From an uncultured Candidatus Saccharibacteria bacterium (lineage in GTDB: Bacteria > Patescibacteriota > Doudnabacteria > UBA920): DNA of 64,000 bases. Made by a program: the position numbers and the translations under genes. The first letter of the stretch is position 1, and each line of letters opens with the position of its first letter. The DNA lies in the NCBI GenBank assembly GCA_964473815.1, contig CAYYQK010000002.1:105128-169127 (forward strand), written 5' to 3'. The notes below the pieces were generated by a model that was not told where the DNA came from, ran no database searches, and worked only from the letters and a program-made list of their open reading frames with translations. Below are positions 10,883 through 36,783 of the stretch, piece by piece.

Positions 10883-11407
10883 TGTCAATTTGTGGTTCTA
10901 GATCCATTTAGCCTCCGAATTTCAGAATGGCCCTATTAAATTCAGAGTCCTAAGACTATGAAATTAAAAGTAAAAATACTCTTAAATTCAGAGCTAATAT
11001 ATATAATCATATTTATAAATCATATTTAAAGATTAATACCCATATTTTGTAAAATATACAAAATATGGGAAACAGCACAAGATAATGAATCAAATAAATG
11101 AAAAACAAATACAAGAATTTATAGATCTATATAAGTTAAAGTATGGAGTAACTATAAGTCGTGAAGAAGCTATCATTCAATCAAGAAAATTATTAGATCT
11201 TGTTAAGCTTGTTTATAAACCAATAAAAAAAGATTCTGATAAAGAGTAGTTGTCCCCCGTGCCAAGAGGAATCGTATCAGTGATAATGTAATTAACAACT
11301 ATCACGTGCCTAGCTAACAATTTGTTTTGATAATTCCTTTATTGGAATAGTCTTTATCTGAAACATTGGGTTCGGATAGTTGTTGAGACTATTCCTTTTT
11401 TGTATTT

Positions 11408-13081
11408 ATGAAAGTATCTAATCCAAAACTTAGATATGTGGTTTATGCACGTAAATCCACTGATTCCGAAGATAGACAGGTTCAATCAGTAGACGACCAA
11501 TTAAGAGAGCTAGAACCAATTATTACCCAAAACAGCCTAAATGTAGTTAGGTATTTTGAGGAATCTAAGTCTGCCAAAAGACGTGGAAGACCAATGTTTA
11601 ATGAAATGATGGATATGATTCAAAATGGTAAAGCTGATGGTATTATTTGTTGGAAACCAAATCGGTTATCCCGTAATGCATATGACGGAGGACTGATACA
11701 AGGAATGCTTACTGATAATATTATTCAATCCATAGTTACTCCATCTAAAGAGCATTTGCCCCAAGATAACGTTATGTTATTAACTGTTGAATTAGGCATG
11801 GCTAATCAGTTTAGTTTGGATTTGGGGCGTGATGTTAGCCGTGGAATGCAGAGTAAAGCAAATAAAGGGTGGTTACCTGAGAAAGCACCACTAGGATACC
11901 TTAACGATCCGCTAGGTTTGAAAGGTGAAAAGAAAATATTTATTGATGAGGAAAGATTCCCATTAGTTAGAAAAATGTGGGACTTGATGTTAACAGGAAA
12001 CTATACTGTTAAGCAATTAAGAGATCTTTCCCATAATGAATGGGGTTTGAAGACAAGGGCTAGTAGGAATCTATCTAGCAAGATGCTAAGTCTGAGCGGA
12101 GCGTATAGAATATTCACAAATACATTTTATTATGGCGAGTATTCATATAAAGGAGAGGTAATTCAAGGTAAACATCAACCCATGGTAACTAAGGAAGAAT
12201 TTGATCGAGTCCAAAAGTTACTTGGTAGAGCTGGTAAACCGAGACCTAAATATAAACGATTGCCATTTAATGGTGTGATTAGATGTGGAGAATGTGGATC
12301 CATGATTACTTGTGATGAGAAAGTGAAACGTTCAAAACAACCAAATGTACAGCCAAAGCATTATTTATATCACAGATGTACAGGTAAGAGTCATGATTCT
12401 TGTTTTCAAGAACCAATCACCTATCAGGATCTAGCTAATCAAATTACTGGTTATCTTGGTAGTATTACTATATCTCAAGAACTATTAGAATGGTCATTAA
12501 AAATATTGCGTCAAAATAATCAAATAGAAGACACTAATCGCTCCATAATAATAAAAAACCTAAAAAAAGATTTGGAGTCCGTTTCAGAAAAGAATAAGAA
12601 TTTGATTGATCTCTTTCTTTCAGGAAGTAATAAAGATCGAAGTATGCTCACTGAAGAAGAATATATCAATCAGAAGAATACTTTTACAGCTGAGAAATCT
12701 AGAATTGAAGGTGAATTAAGAAAAATTGAAACTAATGACGGTGGTTTACTTGAGTTAACTGAGAAGACATTTGAGTTTGCTACTTATGCTAGATCTCATT
12801 TCCAAAATGGCGACTATGAAACACAAACTCGTATATTACTGAATCTTGGGCAGAAAATAGTCTTAAAAGATAAAAAGCTAGTTATAGAATTACAGAAACC
12901 TTACTCAATTATAAAAAATGGACTAGAAAAAATGAGTTCAATTATGATATCGGTCGAACAAGAAGAACGCCTTATACCTAAAAGGAAAAACACTCCTTTA
13001 GAGAGTGTTTATTCCATGTGGAGCGGCCAAGGGGAATCGAACCCCTATCCCTTCCTTGGCAAGGAAGAGTTCTACCATTGA
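11408..13081 (+). CDS. large serine recombinase (resolvase/invertase catalytic domain + recombinase domain + zinc ribbon)
   Basis: N-terminal YVVYARKSTDSEDRQ...SVDDQ catalytic-Ser motif; CGECGS...HRCTG zinc ribbon; coiled-coil C-terminus; last ~63 nt overlap tRNA-Gly on opposite strand. Confidence 0.85.
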   Translation: MKVSNPKLRYVVYARKSTDSEDRQVQSVDDQLRELEPIITQNSLNVVRYFEESKSAKRRGRPMFNEMMDMIQNGKADGIICWKPNRLSRNAYDGGLIQGMLTDNIIQSIVTPSKEHLPQDNVMLLTVELGMANQFSLDLGRDVSRGMQSKANKGWLPEKAPLGYLNDPLGLKGEKKIFIDEERFPLVRKMWDLMLTGNYTVKQLRDLSHNEWGLKTRASRNLSSKMLSLSGAYRIFTNTFYYGEYSYKGEVIQGKHQPMVTKEEFDRVQKLLGRAGKPRPKYKRLPFNGVIRCGECGSMITCDEKVKRSKQPNVQPKHYLYHRCTGKSHDSCFQEPITYQDLANQITGYLGSITISQELLEWSLKILRQNNQIEDTNRSIIIKNLKKDLESVSEKNKNLIDLFLSGSNKDRSMLTEEEYINQKNTFTAEKSRIEGELRKIETNDGGLLELTEKTFEFATYARSHFQNGDYETQTRILLNLGQKIVLKDKKLVIELQKPYSIIKNGLEKMSSIMISVEQEERLIPKRKNTPLESVYSMWSGQGESNPYPFLGKEEFYH

Positions 13082-13092
13082 ACCATGGCCGC
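13019..13092 (-). tRNA. tRNA-Gly (GCC)
   Basis: cloverleaf read by eye: acceptor GCGGCCA/TGGCCGC, anticodon loop TTGCCAA, T-loop GGTTCGATTCC, encoded CCA. Confidence 0.85.
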
Positions 13093-13122
13093 ACGCTATT
13101 ATAAATATAAGTAAATTTTTGC

Positions 13123-13197
13123 TGGTGCCGCGAGTCAGAATTGAACTGACGACACGACGCTCTTCAGGCGTCTGCTCTACCACTGAGCTACCGCGGC
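13123..13197 (-). tRNA. tRNA-Phe (GAA)
   Basis: acceptor GCCGCGG, D-arm GCTCAGTGGTAGAGC, anticodon loop CTGAAGA, T-loop TTCAATT, CCA. Confidence 0.85.
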
Positions 13198-13220
13198 ATA
13201 AATGTGGTTTTAATTTTTGT

Positions 13221-13297
13221 TGGTGGGCGATAAAGGATTCGAACCTTTGACATCTTCGGTGTAAACGAAGCGCTCTGACCAGCTGAGCTAATCGCCC
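13221..13297 (-). tRNA. tRNA-Val (TAC)
   Basis: acceptor GGGCGAT/ATCGCCC, anticodon loop TTTACAC, T-loop GGTTCGAATCC, CCA. Confidence 0.85.
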
Positions 13298-13332
13298 TAA
13301 TGTTCGCTTGTGCGAAAACTTTGTAAAATTTT

Positions 13333-13419
13333 TGGTGCCCGAGAGAGGACTTGAACCTCCACGGGATTAATCCCACTACCACCTCAAGGTAGCGCGTCTG
13401 CCAGTTCCGCCACCCGGGC
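13333..13419 (-). tRNA. tRNA-Leu (GAG), long variable arm
   Basis: acceptor GCCCGGG, anticodon loop TTGAGGT, long extra arm, T-loop GGTTCAAGTCC, CCA. Confidence 0.85.
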
Positions 13420-19823: not shown

Positions 19824-20294
19824 ATGTTAAAGATCAAGATAATTTGTTTGGGAAAATTTAAAGAAAAGGCTTATGTGGAACTTGAGAAAGAATATCTCAA
19901 GCGGCTCAGGCCTTTTGCCAAAGTCACTATGGTTGAGCTGCCAGAAGTTTCATACCGATCTTCAGATATTCCTGACAAAATCAAGGAAAAAGAAGCCGAA
20001 AGTATTGTGAAACAGCTTCCGGATGATGCTTTGGTAATTTTGCTTGAAGAAAAAGGGAATCAGTATGATTCCAAGCAATTTGCTGACTTTTTAGAAAGAA
20101 TTGGTGGTTTGGGGCAAGAATTAGTGTTTGTTCTGGGTAGTGGTTTAGGGCTGCACAGTTCTTTGAAGGCCTATAGCAATTACACAATTTCCCTTAGTCC
20201 CCTAACTTTTCCGCATAATATGGCCAGAGTTTTGTTGGAAGAACAAATTTACCGGGCTTGTACGATTATTTCTCGCAAAGAATATCATAAATAG
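19824..20294 (+). CDS. rlmH: 23S rRNA (pseudouridine1915-N3)-methyltransferase RlmH (SPOUT)
   Basis: MLKIKIICLGKFKEKAY...EYLKRL N-terminus and SPOUT C-terminal knot region; ORF-track start trimmed to conserved Met. Confidence 0.75.
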   Translation: MLKIKIICLGKFKEKAYVELEKEYLKRLRPFAKVTMVELPEVSYRSSDIPDKIKEKEAESIVKQLPDDALVILLEEKGNQYDSKQFADFLERIGGLGQELVFVLGSGLGLHSSLKAYSNYTISLSPLTFPHNMARVLLEEQIYRACTIISRKEYHK

Positions 20295-21649
20295 TCTGGA
20301 TCTGAGTCTGGGTTGGAATGTTTCACGTGGAAACTTAATCCGATCAAAAGCCACAAAAGCAGCTGAGTTGGCCAGATTGTATAGAAATAATGGTCGAATA
20401 GGAACATAACCGCAAAAGCTGCTGCAATGGCAAGTAAAACCATGTTCCATATGTCCTTTTCACGCTTAAATAAGCCAATTACTGGGTATATTAACAAGAT
20501 AAACACAGGGATTGCACCCAATCCCCATTCCGCCCAAGTGATCAGGTAAAAGTTGTGGATTGGCTGTATTTCCCAAGGCTGAAGAATGGTCTGCTTAAAG
20601 TCTTGGGCATATTGTTTCATGTGCAACACACTCGTTCCTGGCCCAAATCCAAAAATAGGCTTATTCTTAACCATTTCTAGCCCGAGCTGGTTGTAAAACA
20701 ACCGTTCTTTAGTGGAATTGTCAGAAATTGTGGAACGAGAAGCTAAATATGGGAATAAAGTCATCCCCCAAATAAGCAGGATTACCCCCAGCGGTAAAAA
20801 TAGCTTAAATATGTGGGAAAACATCTTTTTTACCACAATGTAAACGAGAATTACAAGCAAGCCTGCAGCAAGTCCGAGAATTGCTGCACGTGAAAGCGAA
20901 ATGAATAAACCAAAAGAGTTCAAAGCCAATAATAGCCATAAAACCGCATGTTGAATAGTTTCACGTGAAAACTTACCACGTGGTAGATTCTCACCACGTG
21001 GTTTTTGGTAAGTTATAGCAAGTAAATATAGGTTTAAGAGCACACAGACGACCAGGAAAGCCCCTAAAAGATTAGAATGGGGAAATGTGCCATAGCCGCG
21101 AATCAAGGTCGTTCCATGGGAAACAATCTTTGCTACCCCGAAAGTGCTTGCACTTAAGTGAGATTCCCCAAGTTTATACAAACCAAGAGAGTGTTGTGTG
21201 TAAAATTGGAAAATGGCAATGAGGGATTCCAAAAACCCTAAAAAGCTAAATAACCAAGCCAGCTTTTCACGTGAAACGTTTATTTGCGAAACCGAAGCAG
21301 CAAAAACAATCAAAAATAGGAATCTGAGTGAAAAATAAGCTTGAAGGGGAAGTGTTGCACGTGAAGCGACGAACAACTCGAGAATCAACCACGCGCCGGC
21401 AATTAATCCACTATATTTCCACACTTTGGGAATTTTCCACTTCCGATGAAACAGCAACATCAAAACTACCAAGGCAACTAGAACTAAATCGCTAATATAT
21501 AGAGAGAGGGAAGTGAAGTCAGAGTAAGCGCCGGTTTGAAAGTTCCACGCGGAGTCGAATACGTGCCGGATGGGAAAAGGAATCAAACAAATTAATAGAA
21601 AAAACAAAAATTGTGTTGCACGTGAAATGTTGATTGATGCTTTGTTCAT
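20285..21649 (-). CDS. O-antigen ligase/polymerase-like (Wzy_C) polytopic membrane protein
   Basis: ~12 TM helices with central large periplasmic loop typical of Wzy_C/O-antigen ligase. Confidence 0.5.
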   Translation of the reverse strand: MNKASINISRATQFLFFLLICLIPFPIRHVFDSAWNFQTGAYSDFTSLSLYISDLVLVALVVLMLLFHRKWKIPKVWKYSGLIAGAWLILELFVASRATLPLQAYFSLRFLFLIVFAASVSQINVSREKLAWLFSFLGFLESLIAIFQFYTQHSLGLYKLGESHLSASTFGVAKIVSHGTTLIRGYGTFPHSNLLGAFLVVCVLLNLYLLAITYQKPRGENLPRGKFSRETIQHAVLWLLLALNSFGLFISLSRAAILGLAAGLLVILVYIVVKKMFSHIFKLFLPLGVILLIWGMTLFPYLASRSTISDNSTKERLFYNQLGLEMVKNKPIFGFGPGTSVLHMKQYAQDFKQTILQPWEIQPIHNFYLITWAEWGLGAIPVFILLIYPVIGLFKREKDIWNMVLLAIAAAFAVMFLFDHYFYTIWPTQLLLWLLIGLSFHVKHSNPDSDPDYL

Positions 21650-21681: not shown

Positions 21682-21756
21682 CTCCCTGTAGCTCAATGGA
21701 TAGAGCAGCTCCGTCCTAAGGAGAAGATGTAGGTCCGATTCCTACTGGGGAGACCA
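21682..21756 (+). tRNA. tRNA-Arg (CCT)
   Basis: acceptor CTCCCTG (two G-U pairs), D-arm GCTCAATGGATAGAGC, anticodon loop GTCCTAA, T-loop TCCGATT, CCA. Confidence 0.75.
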
Positions 21757-21762
21757 AAAAAC

Positions 21763-22056
21763 ATGCTGGATAATTTAAAAGACAAAAAGATAGAAGAGTT
21801 AAATGCAAACTTAGGAAAACTAACTCGACAAATGGGTAGTTACTGGTTGGCGTTAGGGAAGGGGTTGTTATATGGATTTGGGACTGTGCTAGGCGCGGGA
21901 GTGGCAATTATTTTGATCGGTTGGTTCTTGAATATTATTGGAGTAATCCCAGCTTTAAAAACTTCTGCGGATCAATGGCGCTCAGCTTTCCAGCAAACAC
22001 AAGATAAGGGTTTGTTGCCTACTAACGATAGTTCGCAAACAACAACACCTCAATAA
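21763..22056 (+). CDS. small membrane protein, hypothetical
   Basis: 97-aa ORF with one long TM helix (GFGTVLGAGVAIILIGWFLNIIGVI). Confidence 0.4.
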   Translation: MLDNLKDKKIEELNANLGKLTRQMGSYWLALGKGLLYGFGTVLGAGVAIILIGWFLNIIGVIPALKTSADQWRSAFQQTQDKGLLPTNDSSQTTTPQ

Positions 22057-22067
22057 AAAGTTTTTCC

Positions 22068-22143
22068 GGGCCCTTAGCTCATCTGGTAGAGCGCTTCCAT
22101 GGCATGGAAGAGGTGAGGGGTTCGATTCCCCTAGGGTCCACCA
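22068..22143 (+). tRNA. tRNA-Ala (GGC)
   Basis: G3:U70 pair in acceptor GGGCCCT/AGGGTCC, anticodon loop ATGGCAT, T-loop GGTTCGATTCC, CCA. Confidence 0.85.
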
Positions 22144-22158
22144 GAAAATATTTCTAAG

Positions 22159-22180
22159 CACGCCGCGAGGCGTGTTTTAT
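22159..22180 (+). terminator. rho-independent terminator (cacgcc-gcga-ggcgtg + TTTTAT)
   Basis: GC-rich 6-bp stem, tetraloop, T-run after tRNA-Ala. Confidence 0.65.
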
Positions 22181-22204
22181 GTTCTATTTTGATATAATAC
22201 TGAT

Positions 22205-22657
22205 ATGGAATTAGTTACAGAAACACGGCTAGATTTTGACCAAACCGTAAGTGATGAAGACCGGTTTGTGATCCGCCGCATCTTGGATAAATTTGCTGAT
22301 GCTGCAAATCGCGGTGATGTAGAAACTTTGAATGCAATGATTGCAGATTCAACAGTAATAGAAGGTTTTTCGGATTTGCCATATATGAAACAAGAGTTTG
22401 TGTCGATTGTATCGCGGTGGCAAACTAGAGGACGAAAGCACATTATGCGGTTTCCAAAATTGAAATTAAGTTATAGTCACTATTTGTATCATCTGGTTGG
22501 AACTTATGAAGAATTTATTGATAACATTTTGGCCACCGAAGGCACGATTGAATTAACTATGGTGAAGCACGACGAGGATGCAGCAGTAGAGGGAAGTGAA
22601 CAGTTTCAAATAGTAAAAATTGTGTTTTACCCGCGCATGCGCTTATCCGAAGAATAG
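22205..22657 (+). CDS. hypothetical protein, possibly NTF2/SnoaL-like fold
   Basis: 150-aa ORF; weak resemblance only. Confidence 0.35.
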   Translation: MELVTETRLDFDQTVSDEDRFVIRRILDKFADAANRGDVETLNAMIADSTVIEGFSDLPYMKQEFVSIVSRWQTRGRKHIMRFPKLKLSYSHYLYHLVGTYEEFIDNILATEGTIELTMVKHDEDAAVEGSEQFQIVKIVFYPRMRLSEE

Positions 22658-22683
22658 TTTATAATAGCGTAAACTAACGATTT

Positions 22684-22771
<88 letters not shown>

Positions 22772-32538: not shown

Positions 32539-33636
32539 ATGGCAAAAGCAAAAAAGACATCAGCAGCAAAGGCTGCAACAAGCACTGACTCTAAAGCTGG
32601 CAAGTGGGGAGCAGTTGAAAACGCGATGGATCAAATCCGCGACAAGTTTGGTGATGGCAGTATCATGAAAATTTCTGATACTCAGAAGCTAAACGTCGAA
32701 GCAATTCCAACTGGTAGTATTAGCTTGGATATGGCTTTGGGAGTAGGCGGTGTGCCAAAGGGCCGCATTGTTGAAGTTTACGGTCCGGAAAGTTCTGGTA
32801 AAACAACTTTAACTTTGCACATGATTGCTGAAGTACAAAAGCGCGGTGGTTTAGCTGCGTTCATCGATGCCGAACACGCGCTCGACCCGGAATATGCAAA
32901 ACGCATTGGTGTAAATCTGGAAGACTTACTAATTTCGCAGCCAGACAGTGGTGAACAGGCCTTAGATATTACCGAAACTTTAGTTCGAAGTAATGCGTTA
33001 GATTTAATTGTTGTTGACTCTGTTGCCGCCCTAACACCACGCGCGGAAATCGAAGGTGAGATGGGACAATCGCACATGGGATTGCAAGCAAGACTTATGT
33101 CGCAAGCCTTGCGTAAGTTAACTGGAATTATTGCGAAGTCGAATACAACTGTTGTGTTCATCAACCAGATTCGCATGAAGATTGGTGTGATGTTTGGTAA
33201 CCCAGAAACCACTACTGGCGGAAACGCGTTGAAGTTTTATGCAAGTGTTCGTGTTGAGATTCGCCGTACCGCGCAAATTAAAAATGGCGATAAAATTATT
33301 GGTAACCGAACGAAGGCTAAAGTTGTAAAGAATAAAGTGGCACCGCCGTTTAAAGTTGCTGAATTTGATATTATGTACAACGAAGGAATTTCTGCTGCGG
33401 GTGATGTGCTCGACACTGGAATTCTAACCGGCGTTATAAATAAAAGTGGTAACTCATATTCATTTGAAGATATTAAACTTGGTGTCGGCCGCGAAACTGC
33501 CAAAACATTCCTAAAAGAAAATAAAGATATTTTTGCTAAAGTGGATAAAGCATTGCGTGAAAAACTGAGTTCTGGTGAACCACTAATGAATAAAGAAATG
33601 GAAGATCTTGGTTCAGACGAAGAAGACGAAGATTAA
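32539..33636 (+). CDS. recA: recombinase RecA
   Basis: GPESSGKTT Walker [11 protein letters not shown]1/L2 loop motifs; full-length. Confidence 0.97.
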
Positions 33637-33649
33637 TCTATATATAGTA

Positions 33650-33690
33650 GAGCCCGTGGTTGCGATCGCGCCACGGGCTTTTTCTTTTGT
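33650..33690 (+). terminator. rho-independent terminator (agcccgtgg-ttgcgatcgcg-ccacgggct + T-run)
   Basis: 9-bp perfect stem then TTTTCTTTTG immediately after recA. Confidence 0.75.
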
Positions 33691-33709
33691 AATCATTTAT
33701 ACTATATAT

Positions 33710-35911
33710 ATGGTTGATAATAGAAGATATTGTAGTGTTGACCTGGAATTTACGGGTTTTGACCCGGCAATCGACCAAATCTTGGAAATAGGATTTGCGT
33801 TTTTTGAATTGGGGCCAGATGGTTTTGTTGTGACAGAGGAATGGTCGCAAGTTTTTAAGCCAAGCATAGAAGTGCACCCAAAGATTTTGGGTTTAACTGG
33901 TATCACACAAGAAGAGTTAGATAACGCGCCAGAGTTTAACGAGCACCGTGAAGTGTTGCAAGAGAAATTAGGTGATGCAATTATCGTGGGTCATAACCCA
34001 ACCATGGACGTGAAGTTTTTAGAAAGTTACGGAATTAAGTTGTCTGGTCAGATTGTAGACACGCTTGAATTAGTGCAATTTATTTTACCAACCCATCATA
34101 GTTACAACTTGGAAAACTTGGTGCATTACTTTGGCGTGAAGCATCATAAAGCGCATCGTGCGTTGGGCGATGCTCTTTCTACGATTCAGGTTTTGGAAAA
34201 TCTAATTCGTGTTTATCAAAAGTTTCCAGAAAAGTTGCAAAGTGAATTGCAAGAAGTAATTAATCGTAGTGAGTTTTTGTGGCAGAAATTAGTAGATGCA
34301 AAACTACCGGAGAAACAATTAGAACAAAACGATTCCTTAGCTCATAACAATGCACGTCAAAAATTACAGCCATTTAATATTAATAACGAGTTAATTATTA
34401 TTGATGACGATGGCAATGATCATGAAGCACGAGTTGCACTAGGTTTGAAGAAAAGCAATACACCAAGTGTGTTAGCAGTAAGCGATAGCATAACTGCAAT
34501 GCGTTTATGGCGTGCTGGTTTTGCTCACGGAATATTTTTAAGCGAAGATACTTTTTCGGAAGTAGCGTTTAAAAAGTTTTTAGAACGAGCACAAACTCAA
34601 GAAGAGTTACGATTCTGTTTAAAGATAATTGTTTGGCTTCATACCAATTGGCAAACAGAAGTTGTGTTTGATTTAAACATTTCTTTCTTTGGCGGACAGT
34701 TTAGACAATTTATTGTTGGCGGGAAAGCACGAACTACAAATGAGAATGTAATCGTTTTAGATTATGTTACTTTGCAATCACTTGCACTCACCGGAAAGTT
34801 TAAAGATCGCAAACTAGTCATCTGCGACATTTTAAATTTTGAAAAATATATAAGTTCGGGTTTTGGAACAAGACTGGCATGGGGCCAAGTGTTGTATGCT
34901 TTGCGTTTAGTTTACAATCCTGAAACAGAATTTGGTATTTTAGAATTAAAAGATAAAGTCATCGATGCATTGGTTGCAACAGATTTATTTTTTGGTTTAG
35001 TGTTCATGCTAACGCATCAATCTTTACCTAACAATCAATATGCTAATTTACATGACTTAGCTAATAATCATTCCCAGGTTTATTCTCGATTGTCACAGGC
35101 TGCTACAAACCTTAAAGATAAGCTTGTCGACATAGCTGATCATACCAAGTCGGGTGAGCTAGGGCGAGTGGTGAATTTCTTAACGGATTTCTTCGAGGAG
35201 AACCCCGGACATGTAAAGTGGATTACTATCGATGAATATAACTCAACCTTTCATGACCAGCCTATAGATATATCAGAAAGCGTGACAGATATAACCTCTC
35301 ACTTCGCTCAACTACAATTTACTGAGAGCATCACTGACAAGGCTTTACTTTCTTATCTTGTTGATCGTCTCGGGTTACATAATGAAGAATCCGAGATTAC
35401 CAATAAAACATTACCAAAGAACCTGCATATTGAGGTTGTTAATTCAGAGCCATCAGATGAAGAGTTGTTTAATTTAAGTGCAAACTCCGCGCTGCCATTA
35501 GTAATGGTGATGCAGCAACCATCAAATGTAAAAGAATTTTATAACGCGCATTACTCTGAAATAAAGAAAACCGCTAGTCTTTTTGCACAAGGATATTCCG
35601 GAGGCGGTAATAAGATGTTCCGCAACTTCTCTATTAGAGAAAATAGTATTCTTTTAGTCACTGCAGACTTCATGGCAAAGCAAAACTATTTAATTACCGC
35701 AAAAAATTTGGTATTTATAGGTTTGCCCAACATAGAAACTCAACATCCTTACACTGCAGCATTGCTTCAGCACTGGAAAAAACAACACCCACACTTAGAA
35801 GAAGTTATGCAGTTACAAAAAATGGTTGGTGCACTAAAAAAATTAAAATTAGATGGCCAAACTAACGTACAAATTTATACAAACGACAAAAATTTTTCCT
35901 TTTGGGGATAA
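33710..35911 (+). CDS. DEDDh 3'-5' exonuclease (DnaQ-like) domain protein with ~550-aa uncharacterised C-terminal region
   Basis: Exo I SVDLEFTG, Exo II IIVGHNPTMDVKFL, Exo III HKAHRALGDA; no Walker A seen in C-terminal part; start set after recA terminator. Confidence 0.65.
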   Translation: MVDNRRYCSVDLEFTGFDPAIDQILEIGFAFFELGPDGFVVTEEWSQVFKPSIEVHPKILGLTGITQEELDNAPEFNEHREVLQEKLGDAIIVGHNPTMDVKFLESYGIKLSGQIVDTLELVQFILPTHHSYNLENLVHYFGVKHHKAHRALGDALSTIQVLENLIRVYQKFPEKLQSELQEVINRSEFLWQKLVDAKLPEKQLEQNDSLAHNNARQKLQPFNINNELIIIDDDGNDHEARVALGLKKSNTPSVLAVSDSITAMRLWRAGFAHGIFLSEDTFSEVAFKKFLERAQTQEELRFCLKIIVWLHTNWQTEVVFDLNISFFGGQFRQFIVGGKARTTNENVIVLDYVTLQSLALTGKFKDRKLVICDILNFEKYISSGFGTRLAWGQVLYALRLVYNPETEFGILELKDKVIDALVATDLFFGLVFMLTHQSLPNNQYANLHDLANNHSQVYSRLSQAATNLKDKLVDIADHTKSGELGRVVNFLTDFFEENPGHVKWITIDEYNSTFHDQPIDISESVTDITSHFAQLQFTESITDKALLSYLVDRLGLHNEESEITNKTLPKNLHIEVVNSEPSDEELFNLSANSALPLVMVMQQPSNVKEFYNAHYSEIKKTASLFAQGYSGGGNKMFRNFSIRENSILLVTADFMAKQNYLITAKNLVFIGLPNIETQHPYTAALLQHWKKQHPHLEEVMQLQKMVGALKKLKLDGQTNVQIYTNDKNFSFWG

Positions 35912-35917
35912 CACCCG

Positions 35918-35946
35918 TTGACAAAGTGAAAAAATTATGATAAGAT
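35918..35946 (+). promoter_or_regulatory. sigma70-like promoter TTGACA-17-TAAGAT
   Basis: consensus -35 and good -10 with 17-bp spacer at the start of an ORF-free 560-bp region. Confidence 0.55.
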
Positions 35947-35952
35947 ACTTTT

Positions 35953-36425
35953 GTAACGTAAATTGCTCCTTGAAATAAAAATATAAAAAGCAAACTGAAC
36001 TAAGGAAATCTGCGCTTGAGGATCTAGAGCTTCATTTGAGCGTAGGCTTCCTTCTTACTCTTCGTCATAGTCTGTCCTAATTCAGACTGTTTGAAAAACA
36101 AAAATAAAATGTAGGTTCTCCTCTCCTTATAAGAGGCAAAAATTTTTCTAAAACAAAAACAAAACTAAAAGAACAAAAAGTTTAGGTCTAGCGACCACAA
36201 GAGGAGTTTGAAGTGCAGTTTGCAATTAATTAGGGTGTAGACATTCTTCTACCATCGTGGGTGGAAGTAAGGCTTAATCGCATAAGTATTGTCTAGTGCA
36301 GTAGGTCTAGGTTCTCAAAGGTTGGGAACCTGCAGCTACTGCGCTGAGCAGTCAAGCAATTGAGCTCAGCGCCACAACCGGCTCGTTCATTTATAATTTA
36401 GGGGCCCGTGTTGGGGCGCTTTTTA
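35953..36425 (+). ncRNA. candidate non-coding RNA of unknown class (ORF-free, promoter-driven, multiple hairpins, ends at ggggcgcTTTTT)
   Basis: no ORF of 60 aa or more on either strand across ~560 bp in an otherwise gene-dense region; strong promoter; 9-bp perfect hairpin gcgctgagc...gctcagcgc; terminator-like 3' end. Confidence 0.3.
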
Positions 36426-36477
36426 ATTTGTAAATTTTTCTCTATAATATAGACAAGATAAAATAAAGTTTAAAAAT

Positions 36478-36783
36478 ATGCCGTCACAAGAATTTATTGA
36501 TGAAATGCGCGAGAAGCTTCTTTCTGAAAAAGAACGTTTAAGTGCAGAACTTTCCGAATCACCGGAACATACTGAATTGGGAAGTGATTATGATGATCAA
36601 GCGCAAGAAGTTGAACTCGATGATGTAAGCGCAGGTTTGCATAAGCGCGTTGAATCAGATTTAGAAAAAATTGAGAAAGCTTTAGCGAAGATTGAAGCGG
36701 GCACTTATGGCACAGATGATGATGGAAATGAAATTTCCGAAGAACGTTTGCGCGCAATCCCTTGGGCAGATCAAGCAATTTAA
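36478..36783 (+). CDS. DksA/TraR-like protein lacking the C4 zinc finger
   Basis: coiled-coil N-terminus and C-terminal region resembling DksA family, no Cys residues. Confidence 0.45.
   Translation: MPSQEFIDEMREKLLSEKERLSAELSESPEHTELGSDYDDQAQEVELDDVSAGLHKRVESDLEKIEKALAKIEAGTYGTDDDGNEISEERLRAIPWADQAI

Follow-up and report, generated by a model that had tools for sequence, protein, structure and literature searches.

We analysed a window of 64,000 nt from an uncultured Candidatus Saccharibacteria bacterium (assembly GCA_964473815.1, contig CAYYQK010000002.1, positions 105,128 to 169,127), in which positions 35912-36477 contain no open reading frame (ORF) of at least 60 aa on either strand. 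The initial annotation had described this stretch as the only long ORF-free region; it is the longest in the window, but a second one of 525 nt exists at 10883-11407, which contains a 54-aa ORF and an AT-rich spacer. The plus strand of the RNA region described here has no ORF of at least 30 aa. Coding potential was considered and rejected: the AUG-UAG of linker 1 (Table 1) is changed to AUGAAG in two relatives (L007 and L009), the resulting read-through peptides are unrelated, and indels are out of frame. All 18 related loci are flanked by a gene for a DinG-like exonuclease on one side and a DksA-like gene on the other, the latter starting 47-143 nt downstream of the RNA in the relatives and always on the same strand, and recA-dinG-RNA-dksA-lspA-comM forms a syntenic block as a whole. 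The upstream protein of 767 aa is a DinG of the Staphylococcus aureus type, with a DEDDh exonuclease and an XPD-like helicase fold, and a role for it as a partner of the RNA was rejected because DinG is a DNA-repair protein. The DksA-like protein (DksA/YteA family) retains a DxxDxA-type tip, DYDDQA. The window holds one copy of the RNA, and phages, plasmids and viral contigs gave no matches to it; judged from these sequence searches, a mobile-element origin is rejected and the RNA appears not to be mobile. A type III toxin-antitoxin repeat array was also rejected, as only a 1.9-copy, 11-nt A-rich repeat is present and the downstream protein is DksA-like.

The promoter proposed for this region, TTGACA-17-TAAGAT, was present and proved to be its top promoter-like site, with 10 of 12 matches. 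The TG ahead of the -10 hexamer makes it an extended -10 promoter, and both TTGACA and TGnTAnnAT are kept in every homologous locus that was aligned. The region had also been said to end in GGGGCGC-UUUUU, and this sequence was found at 36413-36424 as part of a hairpin and U-tract. The terminator was overlooked by a simple terminator scan because its loop is itself a hairpin. In every homologue a terminator hairpin with a U-run folds at this place; compensatory variants of the stem occur in six relatives (L007, L008, L010, L011, L019 and L025), and CAAC/GUUG is swapped for AUCA/UGAU, CUUC/GAAG or UUGC/GCAA among the relatives. Homology detected by nhmmer spans 35942-36429, and the predicted transcript and its parts are listed in Table 1.

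Table 1. Features of the predicted RNA gene and its immediate context (window coordinates).
Feature	Position	Strand	Description
Sigma-70-type promoter	35918..35946	+	-35 TTGACA 35918-35923, 17-nt spacer, TG 35938-35939, -10 TAAGAT 35941-35946
Predicted primary transcript of ncRNA	35953..36424	+	about 470 nt; 5' end inferred from promoter geometry, 3' end from terminator U-tract
5' A-rich single strand	35968..35983	+	CCUUGAAAUAAAAAUA; consensus YYUUGAAAAYAAAAUA, from alignments
H1 hairpin	36002..36053	+	AAGGAAAUCUGCGCUUGA ... UUGAGCGUAGGCUUCCUU; 95-98% of cells paired, double changes at 5 pairs
H2 long-range helix	36057..36063 with 36201..36207	+	ACUCUUC with GAGGAGU; 100% paired; closes 5' domain
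H3 hairpin	36068..36089	+	double changes at 4 of 7 pairs
H3-H6 loop-loop pseudoknot	36077-36082 with 36228-36233	+	6 bp, CUAAUU with AAUUAG; 96% paired
A-rich linker 1	36090..36119	+	UUUGAAAAACAAAAAUAAAAUGUAGGUUCU; constant length of 28-31 nt; AAUGWAGGUUCU invariant
H4 hairpin	36120..36136	+	covarying stem, double changes at 6 of 6 pairs; conserved loop CCUUA
A-rich linker 2	36137..36184	+	CAAAAAUUUUUCUAAAACAAAAACAAAACUAAAAGAACAAAAAGUUUA; A5U5 palindrome, then 2-5 AAAAAC-type repeats
H5 short hairpin	36185..36196	+	GGUC-UAGC-GACC; loops variable, tetraloop-like
H6 hairpin	36218..36242	+	AAUUAG loop pairs with H3 loop
H7 variable hairpin	36246..36267	+	CUUCUACC/GGUGGAAG; 7-10-bp hairpin here in every homologue, sequences differ
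H9 long irregular hairpin	36288..36352	+	27 consensus pairs; conserved internal loop GGUCUAGG/CCUGCAGC
H10 variable hairpin region	36353..36367	+	flanks able to form alternative 9-bp stem in the window, 36341-36349/36364-36372
Intrinsic terminator	36368..36424	+	outer stem AGCGCC-A-CAAC / GUUG-G-GGCGCU around H11; U-tract 36420-36424
H11, inside terminator stem	36380-36406	+	conserved loop GUUCAUUUAUA
TATAAT box, outside the RNA	36443..36448	+	spacer ahead of DksA-like gene
DksA-like gene	36478-36783		downstream of the RNA

Searches with nhmmer identified the RNA in 18 other loci (E = 1e-53 to 1e-156). RNA identity among related loci is 62-83%, and the flanking proteins are less conserved than the RNA (38-64% identity for the exonuclease, 33-69% for LspA). 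In a metagenome pattern scan, 10 of 19 matches were attributed to chance and discarded. The plus strand, for which the initial annotation had reported stable hairpins, has a fold with a z-score of -6.2 relative to shuffled sequences, compared with -2.4 for the minus strand, and a large number of G-U pairs are conserved solely on the plus strand. RNAalifold returned 81 pairs, 38 of them compensatory. We found that a curated fold of 12 helices and 88 pairs, built on a 17-sequence alignment, leaves 95.4% of cells paired (36-51% in slid controls) and has double changes at 44 pairs (10-23 when slid), a result matched by none of 500 shuffles, in a covariation sample of 17-19 sequences from a single lineage in which part of the events are shared by descent. 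The non-helical segments are very highly conserved in sequence. The structure is thus conserved with covariation in 18 other loci, beyond chance, and the data fit neither a long 5' UTR without conserved structure nor a frame-shifted pseudogene, the two outcomes that had been named as contradicting a structured RNA.

Covariation shows a fold of two domains. The 5' domain is closed by H2 and contains H3, H4, H5 and two conserved, mostly unpaired A-rich strands, and the 3' domain comprises H6, H7, H9 as its long helix, H10 and the terminator. The loops of H3 and H6 kiss through 6 bp, again shown by covariation, and so join the two domains. Four of the six pseudoknot pairs are compensatory, and slid controls reach 4-45% paired. 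H2 has a U-A/C-G exchange at one pair and G-U/A-U/G-C changes at two, and H9 is 97.5% paired with double changes at 17 of its 27 pairs. Length varies in the apical part of H1, and some relatives carry an optional, variable hairpin inserted 3' of the CCUUGAAAUAAAAAUA segment. The A-rich linkers have a mean predicted unpaired probability of 0.56-0.77 in 17 of 17 sequences; their repeat unit is AAAACAAAAAC, and linker 2 ranges from 41 to 61 nt across relatives. The window showed no enrichment of complements to two conserved single strands, which were searched as possible trans targets. The perfect 9-bp stem gcgctgagc/gctcagcgc pointed out in the initial annotation does exist, but outside the conserved fold: it consists of the H9 3' strand and the terminator 5' strand and competes with both, and the minimum free energy (MFE) structure of the window sequence uses H9 and the terminator and leaves this stem unused. 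A 5'-3' closing helix suggested by RNAalifold (A3 columns 29-33 with 626-629) was rejected, since three relatives with an altered terminator strand (L007, L010 and L025) show no compensation and its supposed 3' strand covaries instead with the nearby terminator 5' strand. Several further tertiary candidates are unproven because their partners are invariant or inconsistent, namely the H4 loop CCUU with the H9 apical loop AAGG or an upstream UAGG, the 5' UGAAC with the H11 loop GUUCA or with GGUUCU, GGUUCUU with AAGAAC, and the 5' CUUUGA with the H9 loop.

Three identities had been considered in the initial annotation, namely RNase P RNA in a divergent form, some other housekeeping RNA, and a large ncRNA of a novel kind. 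Promoter, terminator, conservation and covariation strongly support a structured ncRNA gene with its own promoter, and RNase P is not supported. No RNase P, tmRNA, SRP or 6S model of Rfam 15 matched the window or 17 loci at gathering score in cmscan, and at E <= 10 the window locus and two homologues (L027 and L028) gave no match to RF00010, RF00011, tmRNA, SRP or 6S. The earlier exclusion of tmRNA holds, as ARAGORN found none; end-to-end pairing is absent, and the A-rich tract lengths differ between relatives by 2, 4 and 6 nt, not all multiples of 3, which leaves no tag frame. In its consensus fold the RNA has several domains rather than the rod shape of 6S RNA. The size, the single copy, the strong promoter and the conservation across the lineage are what one would expect of a housekeeping RNA, which might be a very divergent RNase P RNA or else tmRNA or SRP RNA, and RNase P RNAs of the CPR are divergent, some being detectable only at very low RF00010 scores (PMC8172020). 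We nevertheless regard such an identity as hardly credible, given the lack of any cmscan match at E <= 10 in three independent homologues and because the three look-alikes of RNase P conserved regions sit in local, covarying or variable helices. The P4 5'-like string AGGAAAUCUGCGCU (36003-36016) is the 5' strand of H1, a local hairpin, and covaries with 36036-36053; the J11/12-like GGGUGGAAG (36259-36267) is the 3' strand of H7 and varies in sequence among relatives; and the P4 3'-like ACAACCGGCUCG (36374-36385) belongs to the terminator stem and its inner hairpin, where ACAAC becomes CUAUC, ACUUC or CUUUG with compensating 3' changes. We found neither a P4 between CR-I (GAGGAAAGUCC...) and CR-V (ACAGAA..CGGCUUA) with invariant unpaired A's, both strings being paired locally, nor a J11/12-J12/13 module (GGGUGAAAG-type), and a P1/P2 pairing of the ends around the whole molecule had no supporting covariation. 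The topology is itself incompatible with P4, as the sole long-range helix is H2 and about 220 nt of further structure follow it. The RNA therefore resembles bacterial RNase P RNA (RF00010/RF00011) in size, strong promoter, single copy and these three strings, but it lacks P4 and the P1 closing helix. This removes a false lead and illustrates that unrelated helices can give rise to short strings resembling the conserved regions of RNase P RNA.

The downstream gene raises two further explanations. A cis-acting leader or attenuator of the DksA-like-lspA-comM genes, with the alternative 9-bp stem as antiterminator, would agree with the constant strand and short distance to the DksA-like start and with the mutually exclusive pairings that the H9 3' strand, the H10 flank/terminator 5' strand and the terminator 3' strand can form in the window and several lineages. 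However, the shared GCGC core is self-complementary, so that alternative pairing easily arises, and the MFE structure favours H9 and the terminator. The spacer to the DksA-like gene has its own TATAAT, a -10 box found in most relatives and often as TGnTATAAT, and in three of them (L004, L007 and L027) a second terminator hairpin precedes the DksA-like promoter, which indicates selection against read-through; both features favour a trans-acting RNA over a leader. These features do not point to a dependence of the downstream gene on regulated read-through, as in a riboswitch or attenuator leader, and a 470-nt RNA with A-rich arrays is unlike any known leader. We regard a leader as very improbable. 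Slightly better, though still improbable, is an RNA polymerase (RNAP)-directed regulator, a functional analogue of 6S or Ms1 RNA linked to the adjacent DksA-like secondary-channel factor. The RNA lies directly upstream of a DksA/YteA-family gene in 18 of 18 loci, the protein keeps its DYDDQA tip, and the promoter is strong and looks constitutive, so that a strong promoter, an expected abundance and here an adjoining gene for an RNAP-binding factor are points of likeness to 6S and Ms1 RNA. Against this, Rfam gave no 6S or Ms1 match, the RNA is 2-3 times as long as 6S RNA, and it forms no rod with a central open-promoter-like bubble, H9 being nearly continuous. Adjacency to the DksA-like gene also carries little information, because the whole recA-to-comM block is syntenic throughout. 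We consider it unlikely, but less so than either of these, that the RNA is a new ribozyme or an RNA-only 'ornate' large RNA like OLE, ROOL, GOLLD or raiA, with the compact core as functional unit, A-rich strands making A-minor or tertiary contacts and the A5U5 palindrome of linker 2 mediating homo-oligomerisation. The joining of both domains by H2 and the covarying kissing loop speaks for such an RNA, as do the very high conservation of the non-helical segments and the palindrome AAAAAUUUU(U) in 15 of 17 sequences (L010 and L014 carry another palindrome, UUGCAA); homo-oligomers are formed by large ornate bacterial RNAs (PMC12286853). Yet the palindrome is low-complexity A/U and may be due to chance, and the 20-nt length variation of linker 2 is more easily reconciled with a repeat array or a flexible tether than with a tertiary element that must be precise.

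The locus carries a promoter and an intrinsic terminator of its own, lacks a conserved ORF and shows covariation on a single strand, as expected of an independent ncRNA gene. Based on these sequence features, we are highly confident that it is a genuine RNA gene in its own right, whose structured product belongs to a new family without a match in Rfam 15. Its action is probably in trans rather than as a leader, while the fixed synteny with the DksA-like gene gives a role in cis or one related to RNAP a limited chance. As a whole, the explanation that we favour, with a probability of roughly one half, is a stand-alone ncRNA gene of about 470 nt across Saccharibacteria that acts in trans as an RNP-type RNA with A-rich titration or scaffolding. 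Transcription would start from the near-consensus extended -10 promoter and stop at the RNA's own terminator, and the abundant product would use its rigid core to display (A4-5N)n single strands of variable repeat number as binding surfaces. These strands may hold or titrate a partner that binds single-stranded A-rich RNA, either a protein or the ribosome, in a mode resembling that of CrcZ or CsrB with a far more constrained core. In keeping with a titrating RNA, three A-rich tracts show an AAAA(A)C period; they are predicted to be unpaired, and they vary in copy number. The scaffold or titration mechanism itself is drawn by analogy and is offered tentatively.

A search of the published literature returned no description of this RNA. 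To our knowledge, few bacterial RNAs of more than 400 nt combine many covarying helices with a conserved tertiary contact, and nearly all such large RNAs so far understood are ribozymes, RNP cores or RNA-only assemblies. The genomes of the ultra-small, episymbiotic Saccharibacteria hold about 700-1000 genes, and the retention of a strongly promoted, lineage-wide RNA in genomes of this size makes its importance likely. One might speculate that it represents a class of large housekeeping RNA that has so far escaped description and is confined to Saccharibacteria or perhaps found more widely in Patescibacteria. Such an RNA would be at the heart of a new RNP, act as a new ribozyme or assemble with itself, would do something that proteins could not take over in these ultra-reduced episymbionts, and would be conserved there like RNase P RNA or tmRNA. 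Cultivation and genetics are now feasible for two Saccharibacteria, which opens a direct way to deletion, pull-down and imaging of the RNA.

Among known systems, OLE, raiA, ROOL and GOLLD resemble this RNA in having several hundred nucleotides, many covarying helices and highly conserved unpaired nucleotides, and in being lineage-restricted, probably abundant and of a function not deducible from gene context. In contrast to them, it is encoded by a core gene of the chromosome whose synteny is fixed and which is not associated with phages or prophages, and its A-rich single strands are long; none of them matched it in sequence or structure in Rfam 15. With CrcZ/CrcY of Pseudomonas and CsrB/RsmZ, which come from a different phylum, it shares a stand-alone gene of about 400 nt with its own promoter and Rho-independent terminator, and hairpins between which lie conserved single-stranded A-rich (AAN)n motifs in numbers that differ from species to species. 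Its only cmscan similarity is to CrcZ (RF01675), a weak match of 14.3 bits against a gathering score of 95 (E = 0.57) that covers the A-rich part of one homologue (L027) only, is compositional and does not make it a member. Known sponge RNAs are simple hairpin arrays without a long-range helix or a covarying tertiary contact. The RNA described here has both a long-range closing helix and a covarying kissing loop, and this constrained core hints at something more than a sponge, for example catalysis or an RNA-only architecture.

Loci homologous to the structured RNA element (about 470 nt, predicted at approximately 35953-36424 on the plus strand) were gathered by three routes: tblastn-confirmed genome loci, exact look-ups from exonuclease homologues reaching down to 38% identity, and a scan of metagenomes for a pattern that combined the invariant blocks, from which 10 of the 19 matches were discarded as chance. 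The element was found at full length in 18 loci in addition to the window (nhmmer, E = 1e-53 to 1e-156), in every case between the exonuclease and DksA-like genes and on the same strand. It has a single copy in the window and no match in phage, plasmid, and viral collections. The RNAs are 62-83% identical to the window copy, and the neighbouring proteins vary more (exonuclease 38-61%, LspA 33-69%, and DksA-like protein 51-73% identity). When compared with dinucleotide shuffles, the plus strand folds with z = -6.2 and the minus strand with z = -2.4. RNAalifold on 17 sequences gave 81 pairs, and compensatory double changes support 38 of these; removing an unsupported 5'-3' pairing and adding the terminator yielded a curated structure of 88 pairs in 12 helices. 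In this structure, 95.4% of cells were paired, compared with 36-51% when partners were slid by 1-3 columns, the covariation score was 0.41 compared with about 0.10, and none of 500 shuffles equalled it. Two-sided changes in 44 pairs, as against 10-23 in slid versions, bear out the conserved fold for which the initial annotation had proposed a covariation check in related genomes. Conserved G-U pairs occur only on the plus strand (for example, alignment columns 145-213, 238-259, 501-549, and 512-538).

The H3 loop is complementary to the H6 loop over 6 nt in every sequence, as CUAAUU/AAUUAG in the window and as CUAAUC/GAUUAG, CCAAUC/GAUUGG, UCAAUC/GAUUGA, CCAAAC/GUUUGG, or GCAAUC/GAUUGC elsewhere. 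In the 17-sequence alignment, this contact has 96% of its cells paired compared with 4-45% when slid, and four of the six pairs show double changes. By joining the 5' and 3' domains, the contact points to a compact three-dimensional fold. Both A-rich linkers are predicted to be mostly unpaired in all homologues (0.56-0.77). Linker 1 has a steady length of 28-31 nt and ends in an invariant AAUGWAGGUUCU, and linker 2 (41-61 nt across homologues) starts with an A5U5 palindrome followed by two to five AAAAAC-type repeats. This palindrome, AAAAAUUUUU at 36138-36147, is conserved at homologous positions in loci L001-L028, except that L010 and L014 have AAAAAUUGCAAAAAC in its place, which contains another palindrome, UUGCAA. 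Two RNA molecules may pair with each other at this site.

Features of the RNA and its flanking genes (window positions)
Feature	Position	Strand	Remarks
767-aa neighbour	33608-35911	+	Staphylococcus aureus-type DinG: N-terminal DEDDh exonuclease and XPD/DinG-like helicase fold
5' single-stranded segment	upstream of H1	+	carries CCUUGAAAUAAAAAUA
H1 hairpin	36002-36053	+	
H2 long-range helix	36057-36063 with 36201-36207	+	encloses H3, linker 1, H4, linker 2, H5
H3	36068-36089	+	inside H2
A-rich linker 1	36090-36119	+	inside H2
H4	36120-36136	+	inside H2
A-rich linker 2	36137-36184	+	inside H2
H5	36185-36196	+	inside H2
H6	36218-36242	+	3' of H2
H7, variable hairpin	36246-36267	+	
H9, 27-pair helix	36288-36352	+	
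9-bp stem strands	36341-36349 / 36364-36372	+	
H10, variable	between H9 and terminator	+	
Terminator	36368-36424	+	stem encloses H11 with conserved loop GUUCAUUUAUA
DksA/YteA-family protein, 101 aa	36478-36783	+	acidic coiled-coil tip DYDDQA (DxxDxA-type) kept

The 9-bp stem singled out in the initial annotation can pair, but only as an alternative that competes with H9 and the terminator. The 3' strand of H9, the 5' strand of the terminator together with the H10 flank, and the 3' strand of the terminator can form mutually exclusive pairings in an attenuator-like topology, and these also occur in loci L003, L002, L008, L009, L011, and L019. Alignment column 547 covaries with both 503 and 580. 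Because the GCGC core common to the alternative pairings is self-complementary, we leave them without explanation.

The RNA has its own predicted promoter and terminator. The promoter recognized earlier holds up (TTGACA at 35918-35923, a 17-nt spacer, and TAAGAT at 35941-35946) and, with TG at 35938-35939, is of the extended -10 type; the -35 and extended -10 are kept in all relatives. The 3' end reads GGGGCGC-UUUUU (36413-36424), and every homologue ends in a strong hairpin and a U-run, with compensatory changes in the outer stem (as in L007, L010, and L025) and in its CAAC/GUUG segment (as in L008, L011, and L019). The spacer to the DksA-like gene (47-143 nt in homologous loci) contains a TATAAT box, often TGnTATAAT, and in L004, L007, and L027 an additional terminator-like hairpin and U-run. 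In L007 and L008, further ones separate the RNA promoter from the exonuclease gene, and these putative terminators insulate the RNA gene on both sides in some relatives. We take this arrangement to mean that selection favours a separate RNA gene and disfavours read-through. The region at 35912-36477 indeed has no ORF of at least 60 aa on either strand. No other gap of this kind in the window is as long, but a second one exists at 10883-11407 (525 nt). This AT-rich gap holds a 54-aa ORF (11087-11249) and, at 11037-11071, a perfect 13-bp palindromic hairpin; it has no Rfam match and resembles small-gene or mobile-type DNA more than structured RNA. Across the window, just 7 of 56 likely genes have a Shine-Dalgarno-like motif, and in many a TATAAT-like box stands 6-12 nt 5' of the ATG (for example at 19824, 20285-21649(-), 22205, 30514, 31255, 38822, and 52044), which suggests that leaderless mRNAs are widespread.

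The gene order is recA, DEDDh-exonuclease/DinG-like, the ORF-free region, DksA/YteA-family, lspA, comM-like Mg-chelatase-family ATPase, and nucleotidyl transferase. Relatives of the 767-aa protein come from MAGs labelled either Candidatus Saccharibacteria or Patescibacteria group. Its helicase fold was not recognized by Pfam or NCBIfam, and its AlphaFold model (pLDDT 88) resembles the DinG structure of Staphylococcus aureus (8zef_A, E = 1.4e-29); the protein belongs to DNA repair and is no obvious RNA partner. The DksA-like protein lacks cysteines, including all four of the zinc finger.

Rfam 15 at gathering score gave no match to the element in 17 loci. At E<=10, RNase P, tmRNA, SRP, and 6S had no match in the window locus and two short homologous loci, and ARAGORN likewise found no tmRNA, in agreement with the initial annotation. 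The best match at E<=10 was CrcZ (14 bits), which is compositional and falls on the A-rich part. Divergent CPR RNase P RNAs exist and may score very low (PMC8172020); therefore, we also tested the structural definition of RNase P, to which three strings had been likened. Their places in the fold speak against RNase P: the CR-I-like string forms the 5' side of H1, a local hairpin, the J11/12-like one forms the 3' side of the variable hairpin H7, and the CR-V-like one belongs to the terminator stem and H11, varying with compensation. A 5'-3' closing helix is unsupported in the alignment, and a P4 topology is incompatible with a sole long-range helix (H2) that precedes about 220 nt more structure. 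Elsewhere in the window, Rfam matched only tRNAs and one full-length LOOT RNA (RF03000; 9269-9383, plus strand; 76 bits, with the gathering score at 46), a second structured RNA of likewise obscure function in this genome. Clusters of four tRNA genes (13019-13419, minus strand) and three (21682-22771, plus strand) are present, and in both the ARAGORN ends reach 3 nt past the Rfam matches, consistent with genomically encoded CCA ends.

We found no description of this RNA by full-text search of the literature, in Saccharibacteria genetics and transcriptome papers, or in a 224-motif survey that analysed TM7 intergenic regions; 26-genome and 50-genome surveys, which do not cover Saccharibacteria, do not describe it either. 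Therefore, we regard this RNA as the first of a new family. Its strong promoter of constitutive type, its rigid core with covariation, and its long, conserved (A4-5N)n single strands of varying copy number point to an abundant trans-acting RNA, whose A-rich strands would bind some partner; complementary targets within the window are at chance level. The RNA may have a 6S-like connection with its DksA-like neighbour, but the one basis for this, synteny, lies inside a wholly syntenic block. With a constrained core that sets it apart from CrcZ and CsrB, the RNA may instead be a ribozyme or an RNA-only assembly; the conserved linker 2 palindrome would suit the latter. For an abundant trans-acting RNA, these two titrating or scaffold RNAs nevertheless offer the closest working analogy.
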